A stretch of DNA of 43,083 bases, from NCBI GenBank assembly GCA_002293845.1, contig DBEA01000016.1, positions 30,836-73,918 on the forward strand, written 5' to 3'. The DNA is from Patescibacteria group bacterium UBA918. GTDB taxonomy: Bacteria; Patescibacteriota; Minisyncoccia; Phycocordibacterales; UBA918. Below are positions 2,894-30,454 of the stretch, piece by piece. A program made the position numbers and the translations under genes. The notes beneath the pieces were generated by a model. That model searched no databases, had not been told where the DNA came from, and saw only the letters and a list, made by a program, of their open reading frames with translations. Every line of letters starts with the position of its first letter. Position 1 is the stretch's first letter.

Positions 2894-4411
2894 ATGTCTA
2901 TCGCTCGCACATTCACAGCACAACCTGGCGTATCTCGAGGAGACATGATCACCATCGAAGCAGACCTCTCTCGAGGTCTGTATTCGTTCGCGGTCGTCGG
3001 ACTTCCGGGAAAAGCCGTCGAGGAAGCTAAAGATCGGGTGAGTGCCGCCATAAAAAATTCCGGCTTTAAATCGCCTAAGAGCGATAACAGCAAGATCGTC
3101 ATCTCCTTAGCACCGGCGGACCTAAAGAAAGACGGGCCGTTATTCGACCTACCGATCGCCGTCGCCTACTTACTTGCCGCCGGTGCCATAAAAGGCGACG
3201 TCGAGAAGACATTGTTGATCGGTGAATTGTCACTGGACGGTACGTTACGCGAAGTGCGAGGTGTTTTGAGCGCCGTCGCGGCCGGGAAGCAAGCGGGCTT
3301 TACTGAAGTCATCGTGCCCGAAGGGAACGCCGCCGAAGCGGCGCTGATCGACGATATCATCGTACGCGGCGCCGCCTCGCTTAAGGACGTCGTCGATCAT
3401 TTGGACCACGCACGCGACACTCATCGCACCTTACCGGTAATTCCTGAAACTCGGTTGTCGGATTCTTGGGCCGAGACGCATGTGCGTTTAGAAGACATTA
3501 AGGGTCAAGAGAGCGCCAAGCGGGGCCTGCTCATCGCCGCCGCCGGCCTGCATAACCTGATCATGGCCGGGCCGCCGGGCACCGGCAAAACCATGTTAGC
3601 GCGCGCCTTCCAGGGTTTATTGCCGCCACTCTCTAAAGAAGAAGCTTTGGAAGTGATGGCTATTCATTCGCTGGTGGGTCCTTTGTCCGACCGGGTCTCT
3701 TCGTTACCTCCGTTTCGCACCCCGCACCACACTGCCAGCCACACTAGTTTGGTAGGCGGTGGGGCAAACCCTCGCCCGGGCGAAGTGACACTATCGCATC
3801 ACGGCGTGCTTTTCATGGACGAGTTTCCCGAGTTCGACCGGCGCTCGCTCGATGCCCTGCGACAGCCGCTAGAAGATCGCTACGTCACCATCTCTAGAGT
3901 GAAAGGAAGCGAGAAGTTTCCCGCCGACTTCGTGCTCCTAGCCGCTCTGAATCCTTATCGCGGAGTCGAAGACGGTTCGACCGACTATGCCGCGGCGATG
4001 ATGGACACTTACAAGAACAAGATATCGGGACCGATCCTCGACCGCATCGATCTATGGCTCAACGTGCCACATGTGGATTACGAAACATTGACCACGAAGA
4101 CGGCCGACAACGACGAAACCAAAAGGGCCCGGGAACGAGTACTCCGAGCGCGAGAAAGACAACGAGCGCGGTTAGAGAACAAAAAAGCCGCGGTTAATTC
4201 TCGAATGTCGAGTCGTGAACTGGAAGAGCTGGTGCCCTTATCACCGGAAGTGAAAGATATATTACGCCAGTCGTCCACTAAGTTGAATCTTTCGCCACGC
4301 TCGTTGCATCGACTGATCAAAGTCGCCCGCACTATCGCCGACCTAGAGGATACCGACGACCTGGCGTCGGCACATATATATGAAGCTCTGCAGTATAGGG
4401 TGAAGTTTTGA
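2894..4411 (+). CDS. comM: YifB/ComM-family Mg-chelatase-like AAA+ ATPase
   Basis: The ORF-track frame is open from 2627, but homology starts at ATG 2894 (MSIARTF...), just after the dksA stop. Walker A is GPPGTGKTM, Walker B is LFMDEFPEF, and the N-terminal domain is Lon-like. Confidence 0.9.
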   Translation: MSIARTFTAQPGVSRGDMITIEADLSRGLYSFAVVGLPGKAVEEAKDRVSAAIKNSGFKSPKSDNSKIVISLAPADLKKDGPLFDLPIAVAYLLAAGAIKGDVEKTLLIGELSLDGTLREVRGVLSAVAAGKQAGFTEVIVPEGNAAEAALIDDIIVRGAASLKDVVDHLDHARDTHRTLPVIPETRLSDSWAETHVRLEDIKGQESAKRGLLIAAAGLHNLIMAGPPGTGKTMLARAFQGLLPPLSKEEALEVMAIHSLVGPLSDRVSSLPPFRTPHHTASHTSLVGGGANPRPGEVTLSHHGVLFMDEFPEFDRRSLDALRQPLEDRYVTISRVKGSEKFPADFVLLAALNPYRGVEDGSTDYAAAMMDTYKNKISGPILDRIDLWLNVPHVDYETLTTKTADNDETKRARERVLRARERQRARLENKKAAVNSRMSSRELEELVPLSPEVKDILRQSSTKLNLSPRSLHRLIKVARTIADLEDTDDLASAHIYEALQYRVKF

Positions 4412-13555: not shown

Positions 13556-14116
13556 ATGGATAGTGTATTAGATAAAAAAAGCAGACTGGAGCTATTGAAA
13601 AAGGCACCGATTGAAGTACAAGAAATGTACGGCAATGAGGATTTAGGTGACACTCTCTTATCTTTGGCCAATGTGTTAAATATGAACGCGGATTCAGCAT
13701 ACGATAACTTGGCCTTGACCGTGGGTGACGTCATTTTACGTCTGTATAAAAAAAGTTTATTGCCACAGGTATTAAAAGACCGATTAGGCCTCAACGAGAA
13801 CCAAATAACTATTGTTGTGGATGCTCTGTCTCCTTTCTTGGAAAGAATACCGGAATTACCATCTACGCCGGAACCCGTGCCAGCGATTCCGCCAACATCA
13901 ACAACTGCACCTAACATTGAAGATGCGGCGAATAAGATGGTGCCGCCAAATGCATTGAATCTAGCTCCCCTAGCCGCGGTCAAACCCATGCGCACTTACT
14001 CCGACGACGTCAACATGAGCCGCGCTCACAGCTACGGCGCCTTCAGACCACAAGCAGAAGACGATACGGACGAGCCGACACACAGCAGTAGCCAGGACGA
14101 CTTGATGAGAAAATAG
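13556..14116 (+). CDS. hypothetical soluble protein (T4SS-like operon)
   Basis: ATG at 13556 (MDSVLDKK...), 12 nt after the upstream stop. No TM helix, P/T-rich centre. No family recognised. Confidence 0.5.
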   Translation: MDSVLDKKSRLELLKKAPIEVQEMYGNEDLGDTLLSLANVLNMNADSAYDNLALTVGDVILRLYKKSLLPQVLKDRLGLNENQITIVVDALSPFLERIPELPSTPEPVPAIPPTSTTAPNIEDAANKMVPPNALNLAPLAAVKPMRTYSDDVNMSRAHSYGAFRPQAEDDTDEPTHSSSQDDLMRK

Positions 14117-14518
14117 AAATTAGAGAGTAGAAAGTAGTAGTAATGAGCCAAACTAAGTCATTTAAAGACCTGATCGTATGGCAGAAAGCCAAGGCTTTAG
14201 CCATAATGATCTACAAAATTACCGATGACTTTCCAAAATCAGAGCAATTCGGATTATCGAGCCAAATGCGACGATCAGCGGTTTCAATATCATCCAATAT
14301 CGCTGAAGGATACAGGCGTTTTCACGCCAAAGAAAAACGTCAATTCACCAGTACAGCATTCGGGTCCGGTGCCGAACTTGAAAGCCAGCTAGAGATAGCT
14401 AAAGAGATTTACAGGGAATGTTCCTATCAGGAGGCGGAGGATTTGCTTGCTGATATAATGAAGATACTGAACAGTTTCTTATCGAAGTCATGAGTCCACT
14501 TCTACTCTCTACTTTCTA
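14114..14518 (+). repeat. inverted-repeat-bounded cassette 1 (arms 14114-14132 and 14500-14518)
   Basis: Hand pairing gives 18 Watson-Crick pairs in 19 positions. The 5' arm is C-free and includes the upstream TAG stop. The 3' arm is G-free. Confidence 0.75.
14143..14493 (+). CDS. four-helix-bundle protein (23S rRNA intervening-sequence protein / Avd-like family)
   Basis: 116 aa with 'FKDLIVWQKAKALA...', 'SQMRRSAVSISSNIAEGY' and 'GSGAELESQLEIAKE', the hallmark pattern of this family. Confidence 0.9.
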   Translation: MSQTKSFKDLIVWQKAKALAIMIYKITDDFPKSEQFGLSSQMRRSAVSISSNIAEGYRRFHAKEKRQFTSTAFGSGAELESQLEIAKEIYRECSYQEAEDLLADIMKILNSFLSKS

Positions 14519-14539
14519 ACTTACTACTTACTAAATCAT

Positions 14540-14950
14540 ATGAGATTCGAAGTTCCGCAATTCATCGAGATCGAGGATAAGATATTCGGTCCTTTGACCT
14601 GGAAGCAATTCGTGTACGTCGCCGGGGGAGCGGGGGTAGCGGCCGTGCTTTTCTTTTTCACTCCGTTCATAGTGTTTTTGATACTAGGTCTGCCGGTCGC
14701 CGCCTTTACCTTCATCCTGTCTTTCTATCCGGTCAATAATCGACCCTTTTCCATATTCTTAGAGGCCGCGGTCCGATATTTCAAGGGCACGAAATTATAC
14801 CTATGGCGCAAACGGGGAAGTGGCGTATATAGCCAGCAACAAGCCGAAGAAGCGACCGCTCCGGTATACATGCCGCCCAACGACACTGGCCATATCGCCT
14901 CGCTCTCGCGCCGATTGGAAATGAAAGCTATCCAGAAAGAAAACATCTAG
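14540..14950 (+). CDS. PrgI-family (VirB3-like) membrane protein
   Basis: 136 aa. 'VPQFIEIEDKIFGPLTWKQFVYVAGGAG' followed by two TM helices, the typical PrgI pattern. Confidence 0.85.
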   Translation: MRFEVPQFIEIEDKIFGPLTWKQFVYVAGGAGVAAVLFFFTPFIVFLILGLPVAAFTFILSFYPVNNRPFSIFLEAAVRYFKGTKLYLWRKRGSGVYSQQQAEEATAPVYMPPNDTGHIASLSRRLEMKAIQKENI

Positions 14951-14980
14951 TCGCCTGAGCAAGGTGTTATCATACTGGTG

Positions 14981-15619
14981 ATGCCGGCTCAGAAAAACAC
15001 CACGCAGACATTCGTACCGTTGCGTGACATCAAAGACAACGTCGTGATCCTCAAAAATGGCCAGATGAACATGGTCATGTTGGCTTCGTCGATCAACTTC
15101 GCGCTCAAGTCGATCGACGAGCAAGAAGCGATCCTGAGACAATTCCAATCTTTCCTCAACACCATCGATTTTTCGATCCAATTTTACGTACAATCGCGAC
15201 GCCTCAACATCAGGCCATATCTGGAACTACTGCAAAGCCGCGAAGAGAAACAGGACAACGATCTGATGAAGATCCAACTCCGCGAATATATGCAGTTCGT
15301 AAAAACTTTCACAGCCGAGGTCGATGTCATGAGCAAGAGCTTTTTCATAGTCGTACCTTATACACCGACCGCAGCGAACATTCAGAACAGCTTGGAGAGT
15401 TTCAAGAACGTCATAGGTAGCAAAAAAGAAGTGTACTTCGACGACAAGAATTTCACGGAGCACAAACTCCAGCTGGAGCAAAGGGTATCCTTGGTCGAGC
15501 AGGGTCTTTCGAGCATCGGCGTACGAACTATACTTCTCCAAAATGAGGAGTTGGTGGAGTTGTATTATCATATATTCAATCCGGGCGAGGCCGGCAACGT
15601 GGCGCCGAGTAGTAAGTAG
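14981..15619 (+). CDS. VirB4 N-terminal-domain-like protein (no ATPase domain)
   Basis: ATG at 14981 (GTG at 14978 is also possible). 'FVPLRDIKDNVVILKNGQMNMVMLASSINFALKSIDEQEAILRQFQSFLNTIDFSIQFYVQS' resembles the N-terminal domain of monoderm VirB4/TrsE-type ATPases, judged from memory. Confidence 0.5.
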   Translation: MPAQKNTTQTFVPLRDIKDNVVILKNGQMNMVMLASSINFALKSIDEQEAILRQFQSFLNTIDFSIQFYVQSRRLNIRPYLELLQSREEKQDNDLMKIQLREYMQFVKTFTAEVDVMSKSFFIVVPYTPTAANIQNSLESFKNVIGSKKEVYFDDKNFTEHKLQLEQRVSLVEQGLSSIGVRTILLQNEELVELYYHIFNPGEAGNVAPSSK

Positions 15620-16011
15620 TTTTTAGTTGTCAGTTTTTAGTGAATAGTGAATAAAATCAACTCTTTTAAAGACCTAACCGTGTGGCAAAAGTCATTTGAT
15701 TTGGTCCTCAATGTCTACAAATTAACCGACGGTCTACCAAAGATCGAGCTGTACGGCCTATCTGACCAAATGAAACGATCGGCAACTTCTATCCCCTCTA
15801 ACATCGCTGAGGGTTCAAAACGCGGGTCAAGAAAAGATTTCAAGCAATTCGTCAGAGTTGCCTACGGGTCATCTGCGGAATTGGAAACTCAATTGCTGTT
15901 AGCCAAAGAGTTGTATAATGTCGATATATCGAATCTGATATCAAACCTTAGCGATATACAAAAAATGTTATCGGGGCTTATCAAAAAACTAAGCACTGAC
16001 AACTAAAAACT
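15618..16011 (+). repeat. inverted-repeat-bounded cassette 2 (arms 15618-15641 and 15988-16011)
   Basis: Of 24 positions, 22 are Watson-Crick pairs, 1 is G-U and 1 is a mismatch. The core is a perfect 17-mer, agtttttagttgtcagt/actgacaactaaaaact. The 3' arm overlaps the last HB codons and the stop. Confidence 0.8.
15647..16006 (+). CDS. four-helix-bundle protein (23S rRNA IVS protein / Avd-like family), second copy
   Basis: 119 aa with a GTG start. 'FKDLTVWQKSFDL', 'DQMKRSATSIPSNIAEGS', 'GSSAELETQLLLAKE'. Roughly half of the residues are identical to the first copy by eye. Confidence 0.9.
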   Translation: MNKINSFKDLTVWQKSFDLVLNVYKLTDGLPKIELYGLSDQMKRSATSIPSNIAEGSKRGSRKDFKQFVRVAYGSSAELETQLLLAKELYNVDISNLISNLSDIQKMLSGLIKKLSTDN

Positions 16012-16016
16012 TCTCT

Positions 16017-17816
16017 ATGGGCATTTTCGATCTTTTAAAAAAAGGTGGTACCAAGCAAGAGGGTATTCTCGATACCGAAAGCGCTTTGATGACGCTCGAG
16101 GACGTAGTGGCTCCCTCGGCCGTCCGAGTCGACCCGCGTAGCATAAACATCAGCGGCATGAACGCCCGCGTGTTCTTTGCCGTGTCATATCCGCGCTATC
16201 TCAACGACGGCTGGCTCGAACCGATACTCGACCTCGAGAAAGAACTCGACGTCTCTATAGTGATACACCCGATCGACACCGCCGAAACTTTAAAGAAATT
16301 TCAAAAGAAAGTAGCCGAGGTCCAGAGTCAGATCAACGCCAATGAGGAGAAGGGGATGGTGCGCGATCCACAACTCGAGGCCGCTTACCGCAACCTCGAA
16401 GACCTACGTGACAAGCTCCAACAAGCGGAGGAGAAGCTCTTCGACGTCGGTCTCTACATCGCGGTCTATGGCGCCGACGAGGAATCCCTCAACAAGACCG
16501 AAGCGGAAGTGAAAGGCATATTGGACTCGCGTCTGGTATATCTAAAGCCGGCTCTGTTCCAGCAGGAACAGGGTCTCAGGAGCGTTCTACCGACCATGAC
16601 CGACGAGCTTATGGTGCACAGCAAGTTCAACTCGAGCCCGCTATCGAGTTTCTTCCCGTTCACTTCTTTCGACCTAACCTCGGACACCGGCATTTTATAC
16701 GGCATTAACCGCCATAACTCCAGTCTGGTCCTATTCGACCGTTTTTCGCTTACCAACTACAACTCGGTCACTTTCGCCACTTCGGGTGCCGGCAAATCCT
16801 ACACCACTAAGTTGGAGATCTTGCGTTCCTTGATGTTCGGTACCGAAGTCATCGTCATCGACCCGGAAAGGGAGTACGAATACTTGGCCGAAGCCACTGG
16901 CGGACGATTCTTCAACATTTCGCTCTCGAGCGCTCACCACATTAACCCTTTCGATCTGCCCGATCCGGAAGAGAATGAGGACCCTGAAGACCTACTACGT
17001 TCCCACATCATCGAACTGATCGGTCTGATGCGATTGATGCTCGGGGGATTGTCGCCCGAGGAAGAGACGATAATCGACCAAGCTCTACACGAAGTATACG
17101 CGCTCAAAGACATCAACGGCGACGCTTCCTGGAAGGGTATGGAATCGCCCCTTTTGACGGACTTCGAGATGGTACTGGCCGGCATGGATGGCAGCGACTC
17201 CTTGATCGCCAGGCTCCAAAAATACACCTCCGGCACTTGGTCGGGCTTCATGAACCAGCCCACCAACGTCGACATAAATCAAAAGTTCGTCGTTTTCTCG
17301 CTTCGCGACATGGAGGACGAACTTAAGACCGTGGCGATGTATATCATCATGAACCATATCTGGAACATGGTGCGCCGTCGACTACAAAAGCGCCTCATGG
17401 TCATCGACGAGGCCTGGTGGATGATGAAGAGCGAGGACACCGCCTCTTTCTTGTTCTCGCTGGCTAAACGGGGTCGTAAATATTACCTCGGCATCGCCAC
17501 CATCACTCAAGACGTGGATGACTTCCTTCGTTCTCCTTATGGCGTGCCGATGATCACCAACTCATCCCTGCAATTTCTGATGAAGCAGTCGCCGACATCG
17601 ATCGATCTCGTGCAACGCACTTTCAACCTGACGGACGAGGAGAAACTTCTACTTCTCGAGAGTAATGTGGGGGAGGGCATATTCTTCGTCGGTCTCAAGC
17701 ACGTGGCCATCAAGGTTATCGCCAGCTACACGGAGGATCAGATCATCACTTCCGATCCGCATCAGCTCCTACAGATCAAACAAGCGCGCGCCGAACTAAA
17801 GGCGGCGCAGGGGTAG
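16017..17816 (+). CDS. virB4: VirB4-family type IV secretion ATPase
   Basis: 599 aa. Walker A 'TSGAGKSYT', Walker B 'LMVIDEAWWM', 'ATITQD'. The N-terminal 'YPRYLNDGWLEPIL' region is typical of VirB4. Confidence 0.88.
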   Translation: MGIFDLLKKGGTKQEGILDTESALMTLEDVVAPSAVRVDPRSINISGMNARVFFAVSYPRYLNDGWLEPILDLEKELDVSIVIHPIDTAETLKKFQKKVAEVQSQINANEEKGMVRDPQLEAAYRNLEDLRDKLQQAEEKLFDVGLYIAVYGADEESLNKTEAEVKGILDSRLVYLKPALFQQEQGLRSVLPTMTDELMVHSKFNSSPLSSFFPFTSFDLTSDTGILYGINRHNSSLVLFDRFSLTNYNSVTFATSGAGKSYTTKLEILRSLMFGTEVIVIDPEREYEYLAEATGGRFFNISLSSAHHINPFDLPDPEENEDPEDLLRSHIIELIGLMRLMLGGLSPEEETIIDQALHEVYALKDINGDASWKGMESPLLTDFEMVLAGMDGSDSLIARLQKYTSGTWSGFMNQPTNVDINQKFVVFSLRDMEDELKTVAMYIIMNHIWNMVRRRLQKRLMVIDEAWWMMKSEDTASFLFSLAKRGRKYYLGIATITQDVDDFLRSPYGVPMITNSSLQFLMKQSPTSIDLVQRTFNLTDEEKLLLLESNVGEGIFFVGLKHVAIKVIASYTEDQIITSDPHQLLQIKQARAELKAAQG

Positions 17817-20970: not shown

Positions 20971-21627
20971 GGCCACCGAGGCGGACAGGGTATAGGCAAT
21001 AAAACCAATCATAACCGGGAGTACGTACCGCATGTTGAGATGCATACTGCGCGCAAAGTCGTCCTTCATACTGGACGGTCCATCCTTCTTCGGCGGCAAG
21101 GCAGGTAGCGAGATCTGGGCTTGAACGAACTGTGTCACGCCGGCCAATATCGCTAGCGGCAGACTCTTGGCGGCAATGTCGACGAACCCGAGGAATATCA
21201 TGTCGGCGGTTTCGGGAGTGGGAATGAACGAATATAACAAATCGGCATTGATGCCGGGAAGCGGCACGCCACCGCCTCGGGCCACAGAGAAGTACAAAGC
21301 GATGACGATCGGTATCTGTAGGAACATCAGGAAGATCCCTGAAAAAGGATTGATACCGGCCTCGCGATAAATTTCCATTGTGGCGCGCGCCAGCGCTTCG
21401 CGGTCGTCCTTATGTTTTTCGCGGATATCGTTCAATTTCGGCTCCACTTCCTTCATCATCTTTTGCATCCTCGATGCCTTGATCGATAGCGGCAAAAGCA
21501 CGAATTTTACCAAAATGGTTATAGCGACGATCGCCAGACCGACGTCGCTTCCAGGAATAATGTCGATAAAAAAGACGAGACCGTTGTAGATCGGATCGAA
21601 GAAGAAAGTGTGCCACACGTAGCTCAT
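20905..21627 (-). CDS. yidC: membrane protein insertase YidC (short form)
   Basis: 240 aa. 'LPLSIKASRMQKMMKEVEPKLNDIREKHKDD...MEIYREAGINPF' and multiple TM helices. Lies in the conserved rpmH-rnpA-yidC order. Confidence 0.9.
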   Translation of the reverse strand: MSYVWHTFFFDPIYNGLVFFIDIIPGSDVGLAIVAITILVKFVLLPLSIKASRMQKMMKEVEPKLNDIREKHKDDREALARATMEIYREAGINPFSGIFLMFLQIPIVIALYFSVARGGGVPLPGINADLLYSFIPTPETADMIFLGFVDIAAKSLPLAILAGVTQFVQAQISLPALPPKKDGPSSMKDDFARSMHLNMRYVLPVMIGFIAYTLSASVALYFTVSNLFAIAQEFFIRRRV

Positions 21628-21632
21628 AGGTT

Positions 21633-21962
21633 TTAGTTTTTAGCTGGTAGTACCATCGATCGCTCCAAACATGCTTTCAAATCAGCAAACTTCGCTCCCG
21701 CGGCGGCGGGCCTTGTCAGGATAATATACACGCCCTTGAGATCTCGGTCACGCGAAAGGCGATAGAGGATATTGTAAATACGACGACGCAGTCGATTGCG
21801 GTCGACCGCGCGCTTGTGAACCTTCTTGCCGACCACGACAGCGCCATGGAACGAGTCGGACTCCTGGAATACCAGGGTGAAAAGTGTCTCATGACGCCGG
21901 CGGCCGGTAGCAAAAAAGCGATCGAACTCCTTTTTGGTCAATCGCTCTTTTTTCTTCAACAT
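21633..21962 (-). CDS. rnpA: ribonuclease P protein component
   Basis: 109 aa, basic, with 'AVDRNRLRRRIY' (RNR motif). Sits between rpmH and yidC. Confidence 0.88.
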   Translation of the reverse strand: MLKKKERLTKKEFDRFFATGRRRHETLFTLVFQESDSFHGAVVVGKKVHKRAVDRNRLRRRIYNILYRLSRDRDLKGVYIILTRPAAAGAKFADLKACLERSMVLPAKN

Positions 21963-21966
21963 AATT

Positions 21967-22063
21967 TTAGAAAGTAGTGATTAGAAAGCGGTAAGTAGTA
22001 TAACGACAACCGCGCAAATGGCGAGTCGCCGCCCACTTTCTAATTCTACCGACTACTTACTAG
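21967..22063 (-). repeat. ORF-less long hairpin of the AGTAG/CTACT motif family filling the rpmH-rnpA spacer
   Basis: Outer stem 21967-21978/22052-22063 (11 of 12 positions paired). Inner stem 21979-21988/22036-22045 (10 bp). It covers the rpmH stop and ends 5 nt from the rnpA ATG. Confidence 0.6.
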
Positions 22064-28984: not shown

Positions 28985-29042
28985 GACGAGAAAGGCCGGC
29001 ACCTAATTTCCAAATTAGAAACTAGTAGCTAGAAAAGGCGAC

Positions 29043-29071
29043 GCTGTAAGCGTCGCCTTTTCGCACCCTGA
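29043..29071. terminator. bidirectional intrinsic terminator between tyrS and the convergent ruv operon
   Basis: 12-bp stem aaaaggcgacgc/gcgtcgcctttt with a 5-nt loop. Confidence 0.8.
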
Positions 29072-29375: not shown

Positions 29376-29846
29376 TTATCGATGATGTGCAAGTGCGGTC
29401 ACCGCCACGGCGATAGCATCGTATTCGTCGTCCATAGCTTTCAGGGGGATATTGGGCACAAGACGTCTGAGCATGTCTGTGACGGCGGTCTTGTCGCTCT
29501 TGCCATAACCGGTCACCGCCACCTTAACCTCGGCCGGACCGAATTCTTTCACGGCGGCGCCGTATTCTCGTGCCAGGAAGATGATCGCGCCCCTGGCTTC
29601 GGCCACCGCCACGGCGGTCTTTTGGTTCTTATTGAAGAAGAGCGTCTCGATGGCCACTTGATCAGGTCGATGTTCGGATATTATCGACCTGAATTGGGCG
29701 CCCGCTTCGCCGATACGCTCCGGCAAGGCGGCTTTTTTGTCGGTCAAGATACAGGTGGAGAAGATCAGCCGTTCTTTTCCGCCGTCCTTTTCCATCACGG
29801 CCACACCCAACCTGTCGTACCCAGGGTCTACGCCTATGACTTTCAT
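29376..29846 (-). CDS. ruvC: crossover junction endodeoxyribonuclease RuvC
   Basis: 156 aa with 'MKVIGVDPGYDRLGVAV', 'VTGYGKSDK' and 'DEYDAIAVA'. Confidence 0.9.
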   Translation of the reverse strand: MKVIGVDPGYDRLGVAVMEKDGGKERLIFSTCILTDKKAALPERIGEAGAQFRSIISEHRPDQVAIETLFFNKNQKTAVAVAEARGAIIFLAREYGAAVKEFGPAEVKVAVTGYGKSDKTAVTDMLRRLVPNIPLKAMDDEYDAIAVAVTALAHHR

Positions 29847-30397
29847 GAGTCTTCGATAGAATCAGGACTATCAGCCGCGGTGAATATTTCCTGTACGTCG
29901 CTCTGTTCCTCGAGAGCTTCTATCAGTTCGGCCAGTTTCTCGCCGTCGATATCGGAAAGTTCCATCGGGTTCTGCGGCACGAAGCCGGCGGTCGTTTTGG
30001 TGAACGCCCACATCGAGGTGCCCGGGGACCCGAGCGCGTATCCGGTTTTGGTGAAAATGTGGCGAATCTCCTGAGAGGTGCGGTTGTTGTTATCAGTGAC
30101 CGCGGTGACTATCATCGCCACGCCGCCGGGGCCAAAAGCTTCGAAGATCACCTCCTCCAGCGCTTCGCCGCCGGCCCCGGCGCCTTTTTGGACCGCGCGG
30201 TCGATGTTTTCTTTCGGCATCGAGTCTTTTTTGGCGCGCTCGATGACGGCGGCGAGACCTGGGGAGTTGACGTCACCTTTGGCCTTGCGAGATTCCATGG
30301 CGATCAGAGTCGAATGTTTGGAGAACACACGGCTCTTGACCGCGTCGGTCGCCGCCTTCTTGTGTTTGATCTTGCTCCATTTGTTATGTCCGGACAT
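29843..30397 (-). CDS. yebC: YebC/PmpR-family protein (short form)
   Basis: 184 aa with 'SGHNKWSKIKHKKA' and 'TDNNNRTSQEIRHIF'. Overlaps the ruvC start by 4 nt. About 50-60 aa shorter than the typical family length as I recall it. Confidence 0.85.
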   Translation of the reverse strand: MSGHNKWSKIKHKKAATDAVKSRVFSKHSTLIAMESRKAKGDVNSPGLAAVIERAKKDSMPKENIDRAVQKGAGAGGEALEEVIFEAFGPGGVAMIVTAVTDNNNRTSQEIRHIFTKTGYALGSPGTSMWAFTKTTAGFVPQNPMELSDIDGEKLAELIEALEEQSDVQEIFTAADSPDSIEDS

Positions 30398-30454
30398 AGG
30401 TTAGTAATTAGTCAGTAGAAAATAGTAAGTAGTAGTTCGTCTAATCCAAATCGT

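Follow-up and report, generated by a model that had tools for sequence, protein, structure and literature searches.

The window analysed here, a 43,083-nt stretch of contig DBEA01000016.1 from the Patescibacteria group bacterium UBA918, contains a conserved chromosomal type IV secretion-like operon of a candidate phyla radiation (CPR; Paceibacteria-like) bacterium, ordered virB6/TrbL–orf201–[HB1]–prgI–virB4N–[HB2]–virB4. HB1 and HB2 encode four-helix-bundle (HB) proteins, each enclosed in a small cassette with inverted arms. Our subject is cassette 2, a ~395-nt unit (15617–16014) between the virB4N stop and the virB4 ATG. Upstream, virB4N (orf213, 14978–15619, + strand, 213 aa, stop TAG at 15617–15619) is a stand-alone N-terminal TraC-like domain of VirB4 (PF26593), which the NCBIfam VirB4 models align at their N-terminal ~11–170 positions; this separately encoded domain is the refined identity of what the first-pass annotation had called only the upstream gene. 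Downstream, virB4 (16017–17816, + strand) encodes the 599-aa VirB4 ATPase body, with Pfam matches to P-loop_TraG, AAA_10 and the end of TraC_F_IV.

HB2 (15647–16006, + strand, the same strand as the operon) begins at a GTG in the fifth left-arm heptamer and encodes a 119-aa four-helix-bundle/23S rRNA intervening-sequence protein of the S23p family. It matches PF05635 with E = 8e-36 and 123 bits (cut-off 33.8) and TIGR02436 with E = 2e-36 and 124 bits (cut-off 24). The nearest solved structure is Xanthomonas XCC0516 (PDB 2GSC, E = 2e-18), and S23p/XCC0516 is a homopentamer (PMC4990558, citing Lin 2006). Profile searches with Pfam and NCBIfam gave no recognisable nuclease, recombinase or reverse-transcriptase domain in the HB protein. 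Compared with its counterpart in a related locus, L005 (pN 0.19, pS 0.75), the HB2 open reading frame (ORF) carries a clear signature of purifying selection; dS is saturated, so no dN/dS is given and only pN << pS is reported.

Each arm of cassette 2 consists of about four to five tandem heptamers. The left arm (15617–15658, + strand), delimited by heptamer pattern match, inverted repeat and pairing probabilities, reads TAGTTTT, TAGTTGT, CAGTTTT, TAGTGAA, TAGTGAA, TAAAATC. The virB4N stop doubles as its first TAG, and its first 24–27 nt pair with the right arm. Because TAG recurs every 7 nt and 7 is no multiple of 3, the arm presents stops in all three frames. The right arm (15988–16014, + strand) is formed from complementary heptamers (ACTAAGC, ACTGACA, ACTAAAA, ACT), encodes the HB C-terminal tail (..LSTDN) and includes the TAA stop at 16004–16006. 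A heptamer array test places five to six units from the TAG stop onwards, with the complementary array ending 5 nt before the ATG. When recomputed, the stem first proposed (15618–15641 with 15988–16011) again had 22 Watson–Crick pairs, one G–U and one mismatch, with a perfect 17-mer core; its 5′ arm begins inside the upstream stop TAG, and its 3′ arm spans the last HB codons and TAA, ending 5 nt before the ATG at 16017, all as annotated. A repeat search extends the arms to 27 nt at 89% complementarity (15615–15641/15988–16014).

The tail that the right arm encodes is a variable element of HB proteins (K-L-x-T-x-N/T; window 15990–16006, HB alignment columns ~118–126). The ORF ends wherever CTAA or CTGA comes in frame. 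Part of the protein sequence is thus set by the repeat.

As RNA, 15600–16030 folds with a minimum free energy (MFE) of −113.6 kcal/mol, whereas shuffles gave −92.4 ± 5.6 (z = −3.8) and none of 100 did as well. MFE and centroid structures both contain the closing stem, and nearly all arm positions pair with the opposite arm at a probability of 0.9–1.0 (mean 0.89). This was the check that the first-pass annotation had proposed, and its outcome agrees with the proposed stem. Six contigs assembled independently from other samples match cassette 2 at 100% over 500 nt, so it is no assembly artefact. Rfam searches, at gathering and E-value thresholds, found no known RNA family at cassette 2, and promoter and terminator scans found nothing at its borders. 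An intrinsic terminator was considered and rejected: 15600–16030 holds no terminator-like site, the stem being A/T-rich and followed by CTTCTCTATG. The G+C contents first counted by hand were reproduced at 42.3% (15661–15960) and 66.7% (16081–16140). The latter is a local peak, with virB4 as a whole at 53.1%, the window at 52.7% and the HB genes at 40–42%.

Filled and empty operon junctions

The relatives of the window locus are Paceibacteria-type CPR bacteria, and in most of them the virB4N/virB4 junction is empty. Among 80 type IV secretion loci (L001–L080) collected by a genome scan with the virB4N protein, ~77 have the virB4N stop and the virB4 ATG separated by <~100 nt, usually <30 nt, with no HB gene in between. 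Where the junction sequence was read, the virB4 ATG lies 2–8 nt past the virB4N stop. In the closest relatives (90–92% protein identity) the junction is AAG TAA TT ATG or AAA TGA TT ATG. The arms of cassette 2 are absent at empty sites. These empty sites show that the whole unit, from the TAG to ~5 nt short of the ATG, was inserted, with the arms forming its ends and moving together with the ORF. A foreign origin, suggested in the first-pass annotation from base composition, gains support from the same comparison, since empty sites imply insertion.

Across different genomes, HB cassettes occupy three junctions of this operon. The orf201/prgI junction is filled in the window, prgI/virB4N in L001, L005, L006, L161–L164 and L179, and virB4N/virB4 (site 3) in the window, L005 and L179. 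L165, a 90% relative, has no HB cassette, and its orf201/prgI site is empty. In a neighbour-joining tree of host proteins the three site-3 carriers fall into three separate clades, each with sister lineages without the cassette; this polyphyly requires at least three gains or several precise losses. The occupants of a single site also differ. L161 and L164 have flanking genes that are 92% identical, yet their HB genes at the same site are 53% identical and their arms are different. The earlier description of the cassettes as independent or old insertions is borne out by the three junctions, the polyphyletic carriers and the empty sites in close relatives. As to a target-site duplication, L179 fits TA...TA, and the window and L005 do not clearly do so; the TAG-phased arms confound the comparison.

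Among the matches listed (120 of 5300 hits), virB4N is a separate gene of ~211 aa in 120/120 relatives. virB4 is therefore split throughout the lineage, and cassette 2 occupies the split junction. In all relatives examined among L001–L080, a TraC-like N-domain of ~211 aa and an ATPase of ~600 aa make up VirB4 as separate genes, only 2–30 nt apart. An ancient cassette insertion, bringing three-frame stops and an abutted downstream start, could speculatively have been the origin of the split.

Inverted heptamer arrays around HB genes

A survey set of 84 complete HB genes with usable flanks was assembled; 80 HB-centred loci (L081–L160) came from a metagenome scan with the HB alignment. The left flank of each gene was locally aligned to the reverse-complemented right flank. 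Alignment scores replaced RNA duplex folding of long flanks, in which controls already reached ~−31 kcal/mol. A cross-locus control is inflated by heptamer families common to different cassettes. The first-pass annotation had predicted that HB genes are systematically flanked by inverted repeats, a comparison set beforehand as one that could refute it. Inverted arms (score ≥ 24) enclose 74 of the 84 HB genes (88%) and 11 of 409 size-matched displaced segments (2.7%; Mann–Whitney p = 7e-41), an outcome that favours the prediction. At a score of ≥ 34 the counts are 52/84 and 0/409.

The flanks share the period seen in cassette 2. Lag-7 autocorrelation is 0.44 in left and 0.42 in right HB flanks (0.26 in controls), and 7 is the best lag in 57/84 left and 59/84 right flanks. 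Three-frame stops occur in 55% of left arms against 3% of control windows. The stems have a median length of 31 positions (~4.4 heptamers). The upstream neighbour is co-directional with the HB gene in 72/76 cases. Relative to the upstream stop (TAG in 48/64), the median left-arm start is at −1 nt, and right arms most often end ~6–8 nt short of the next start. An rRNA context was seen for none of the 84 HB genes.

Period-7 arrays, under a stringent definition, number 103 in 0.98 Mb, and 62 of these touch HB gene borders, which make up 2.6% of the sequence. Off HB borders, ~40 arrays were seen in ~0.3 Mb of L081–L160 against one in ~0.65 Mb of L001–L080, which are mostly without HB genes. This hints that arrays and HB genes co-occur at genome level, in a sampling that is biased. 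In a single metagenomic contig, L154, three HB cassettes lie within 3.2 kb (920–1285, 2501–2875 and 3717–4091), each with a separate heptamer family (AGCTGCG, GGGTCTG and TTAGGGA). This contig points to a heptamer family for each HB paralogue and perhaps to local hot spots.

The arrangement extends to the relatives of the solved structure. In Xanthomonas and Rhodanobacter (L167–L172, about 1925–2440), XCC0516 orthologues lie between accB and accC. They are flanked by inverted GGGAATC/GATTCCC-type arrays that end 0–2 nt before the accC ATG.

Role of the arms

The arms are constrained. Between the window and L005 the arm cores are identical at 22/24 and 21/23 positions (~91%), and a core, CTGACAACTAAAAACT, is common to the right arms of the window, L005 and L179. 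The cores are conserved while synonymous sites of the HB ORF are saturated, so the arms are under selection at the sequence level. Over 70 cassettes, arm similarity rises with HB protein identity (Mantel rho 0.26, a value reached in 0/999 permutations), so that arms and ORF evolve as one unit. To this extent the first-pass claim of a functional stem, rather than a duplication scar, stands; the conservation does not discriminate between an RNA helix and a DNA sequence as the target of selection.

Our preferred reading, which we hold to be somewhat probable, draws on the analogy with rRNA intervening sequences (IVSs): 15617–16014 would be an IVS-type, promoterless selfish cassette, transcribed by read-through, with RNase III processing its terminal helix. 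It stands in the sense direction after a co-directional gene, and its architecture recurs in most sampled HB genes, in Xanthomonadales and in the published Coxiella IVS. Transcription would come by read-through from the operon. The TAG-heptamers would end upstream translation in any frame, with the first TAG as the virB4N stop (TAA or TGA in the closest relatives). Once transcribed, the arms would form a 24–27 bp helix, which RNase III would cleave as demonstrated for rRNA IVSs. Cleavage would excise or insulate the HB segment, and the flanking host cistrons would stay functional.

Several observations weigh against this reading. Among the larger ORFs scanned, the window has no RNase III gene. 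The surveyed stems carry 17% mismatches on average, and across 70+ stems there is no G–U excess (75 G–U against 87 A–C mismatches) and transversions dominate; selection specifically on a sense-strand RNA helix is therefore not demonstrated. Three-frame stops are not universal, the Xanthomonas GGGAATC arrays being without stop codons, and the 2–8 nt spacers of compact genomes account in part for the close fit to stop and start codons. Finally, the conservation of the arm sequence is at least as well explained by specific-sequence recognition as by a generic role as double-stranded RNA. Nor are there compensatory changes among the three site-3 cassettes (window, L005 and L179), in which the arms are simply conserved. 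Together with the missing G–U excess, this leaves RNA-helix and DNA/protein-recognition roles without discrimination.

The strongest rival, which we judge rather unlikely but serious, is that the arms act mainly at the DNA level, as iterated binding or recombination sites in the manner of terminal inverted repeats (TIRs), for the HB pentamer, a host recombinase or one acting in trans. The RNA helix would then be a by-product, and ORF-less heptamer hairpins would be non-autonomous derivatives resembling MITEs (miniature inverted-repeat transposable elements). The two readings are not mutually exclusive. Conservation of arm sequence beyond pairing against saturated synonymous sites, and the lack of a G–U over A–C asymmetry, both favour a DNA-level role. 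So do the regular, iteron-like period-7 arms (~4.4 units each) alongside a homopentameric protein, the concentration of arrays at HB gene borders (62/103) and the possession of its own heptamer family by each HB paralogue within a genome (the two of the window, those of L005 and the three of L154). ORF-less inverted heptamer hairpins in L162, L088 and L119 share their heptamer family with an HB cassette within ~2.5 kb, and Xanthomonas has ~70 convergent GGGAATC pairs but few HB genes (PMC4692102). Against this, the HB protein has no known catalytic domain, and none of the 27 larger window ORFs scanned (of ~35 distinct ORFs ≥140 aa) encodes a reverse transcriptase, transposase or integrase. The sense-orientation bias (72/76) is unexpected for a symmetric TIR transposon unless it results from selection for expression. 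There is no clear target-site duplication, and arms and protein would co-vary under simple co-inheritance as well.

That the stem is instead a translational device seems to us improbable. The base of the helix would join the virB4N stop to the virB4 ATG and keep termination–reinitiation coupling, and the stem might also gate HB translation from its weak GTG. Empty sites with stop and start 2–8 nt apart imply such coupling, the helix base at the filled site sets the stop and the ATG 5 nt apart, and the survey positions (left arm at a median of −1 nt from the stop, right arm most often ~6–8 nt before the next start) agree. This geometry is largely forced by the tiny spacers, however; a translating ribosome would unwind the helix on reaching the stop codon, and heptamer periodicity and sequence conservation are left unexplained. 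We reject as very improbable that the stem arose by chance, is the scar of a duplication, serves as an intrinsic terminator or remains from a diversity-generating retroelement (DGR; Avd): AT-rich DNA can give chance inverted repeats and HB1 has a weak bAvd match, but no shuffle folds as well (0/100), arms mark 88% of HB genes against 2.7% of controls, the cassette has no T-run or terminator-like site, and no reverse transcriptase occurs among the large window ORFs, NCBIfam Avd scores being 18–24 against a cut-off of 80.

Known and neighbouring elements

From rRNA, elements are already known in which a terminal stem with heptamers encloses an S23p ORF, and they are considered selfish. In the 23S IVS of Coxiella, a 28-bp terminal stem accompanies the S23p ORF, tandem GACAGAT heptamers precede the ATG, and RNase III cuts within the stem (PMC4990558). 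S23p IVSs (Coxiella, Leptospira, Brucella and others) and cassette 2 both carry a PF05635 ORF in sense orientation, and in both, terminal inverted repeats build a stem of ~24–28 bp. In the Coxiella IVS as in cassette 2, the tandem heptamers of the 5′ arm stand directly upstream of the start codon. Size (~400–450 nt) and sporadic distribution also agree, the IVS being regarded as selfish (PMC4990558). Unlike the IVSs, whose place is within a 23S rRNA gene (helix 25 or 45), cassette 2 sits at the stop/start junction of a protein-coding operon in a window where Rfam finds no rRNA, and its heptamers start with TAG and act as stop codons. The HB2 ORF shows clear purifying selection, whereas the Coxiella ORF has been judged to be decaying. 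Apart from the rRNA location, then, no structural feature of an IVS is missing from the window cassettes; excision by RNase III would here be an extension by analogy.

Correia elements (Correia repeat enclosed elements, CREE, or Neisseria miniature insertion sequences, NEMIS) are small elements bounded by inverted repeats, forming an RNA hairpin that RNase III can bind or cleave, and they vary in presence between related strains (PMC2649163). Correia elements and MITEs resemble HB cassettes in their inverted-repeat bounds, small size and position in transcribed intergenic regions, and the ORF-less hairpins of the window (21968–22062) and L162 are MITE-like. In contrast to MITEs, which are non-coding and <300 bp, the HB2 cassette has a conserved 119-aa ORF. 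Its arms are heptamer arrays where Correia elements have a unique 26-bp repeat, it has no demonstrated TA duplication, and the two HB copies in the window genome differ in sequence rather than being near-identical.

Heptanucleotide arrays have been described separately. TAACTGA arrays of Beggiatoaceae and cyanobacteria carry stops for all three frames, and their end often lies 1 nt ahead of a start codon (PMC4679880). GGGAATC arrays, frequent as convergent pairs (~70 in X. campestris), have been published as simple repeats that form G-quadruplexes (PMC4692102). Like the HB arms, these arrays (Xanthomonas GGGAATC, Nostoc GGGGA(T/C)T and TAACTGA) are period-7 tandem units abutting start or stop codons, and the Xanthomonas arrays flank the Xanthomonas HB gene itself. 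In the passages searched they are treated as simple-sequence repeats, G-quadruplex motifs or translational signals, whereas here they are the paired termini of an ORF-carrying insertion. Term searches of PMC4692102 and PMC4679880 gave no mention of S23, 'intervening' or 'helix bundle'.

The Avd proteins of DGRs share the four-helix-bundle fold by homology and belong to a pentameric family, with HB1 as a weak match to bAvd (PF22296, 30 bits against a cut-off of 40). Unlike in DGRs, no reverse transcriptase and no template/variable repeat pair lies near the HB genes. An Avd assignment was rejected: NF033474 scored 17.6 and 23.9 bits against a cut-off of 80, and no reverse-transcriptase domain was found in the 27 scanned window ORFs.

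To our knowledge, 23S IVSs and S23p have stood unexplained since the early 1990s as to source, mobility and the role of the protein. In the literature searched, which took in few of the subscription journals, we found nothing linking HB genes outside rRNA to inverted heptamer arrays; HB cassettes at stop/start junctions of protein operons, PF05635 arms across phyla, filled and empty pairs, and ORF-less derivatives were likewise not found. The present case places an IVS-type element outside rRNA, at stop/start junctions within ordinary operons; genomes ~90% identical offer both filled and empty sites, and ORF-less derivatives lie nearby. It turns an rRNA curiosity into a general cassette with natural insertion/absence pairs and explains the scatter of 'four helix bundle protein' genes inside conserved CPR operons. 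It also joins three literatures that, within the scope searched, appear unconnected: those on IVS/S23p, on bacterial heptamer arrays and on Avd-like four-helix bundles.

Tentatively, and as a possibility we would not put first, PF05635 genes may form the protein core of a widespread and previously unrecognised mobile cassette, bounded by inverted heptamer arrays in distant phyla. The pentameric HB protein would recognise its own heptamers, in RNA or DNA, and promote spread or processing. ORF-less hairpins and many heptamer arrays (Xanthomonas GGGAATC, cyanobacterial, Beggiatoa) would be non-autonomous derivatives, and 23S IVSs one landing site among others. If so, such cassettes may have created split genes such as CPR virB4.

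The window itself covers the chromosomal origin region, with dnaA, dnaN, rpmH–rnpA–yidC, polA, uvrD and ruvB. Cassette 1 (14114–14533, + strand) has the same architecture as cassette 2 and lies between orf201 and the prgI/VirB3-like gene (14540–14950), which itself separates cassette 1 from virB4N. On the + strand, the left arm (14114–14141: TAGAAAT, TAGAGAG, TAGAAAG, TAGTAGT) is followed by the HB1 gene (14143–14493) and a right arm of ..CTA heptamers (14498–14533). Its fold is as distinct as that of cassette 2 (z = −4.0; mean arm pairing probability 0.84). HB1 and HB2 are 49% identical, close to the half identity first estimated. The first-pass annotation had held that the two cassettes kept one architecture on unrelated stems; the architecture is indeed common, but the stems are not unrelated, both being TAG-initiated heptamer arrays. 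Neither this heptamer make-up nor the correspondence to 23S rRNA IVSs had been recognised in that annotation.

On the − strand, between the rpmH stop and the rnpA ATG, the ORF-less hairpin at 21968–22062 follows the layout of the HB cassettes: the stop TAG is followed by TAG-heptamers, which a loop of ~50 nt separates from CTA-heptamers, with the rnpA ATG 5 nt further on. It could have arisen as a non-autonomous derivative or be what a deletion left behind. In L162, a 92% relative, an ORF-less hairpin (L162 1940–2040) stands at the orf201/prgI junction, where the window has HB1; its heptamers, TAGAACG and TAGTTCG, correspond to those in the arms of the HB cassette that fills the following junction (L162 2590–3000).

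Three further solo arrays of the window lie at gene junctions. One CTA-type array (21620–21654) runs across the rnpA 3′ end and the yidC start, and another, of five units (30398–30440), ends 5 nt before a yebC-like ORF (29843–30397, − strand). The third (29016–29062: TAGAAAC, TAGTAGC, TAGAAAA) comes after tyrS and leads into a perfect 14-bp terminator-like hairpin.

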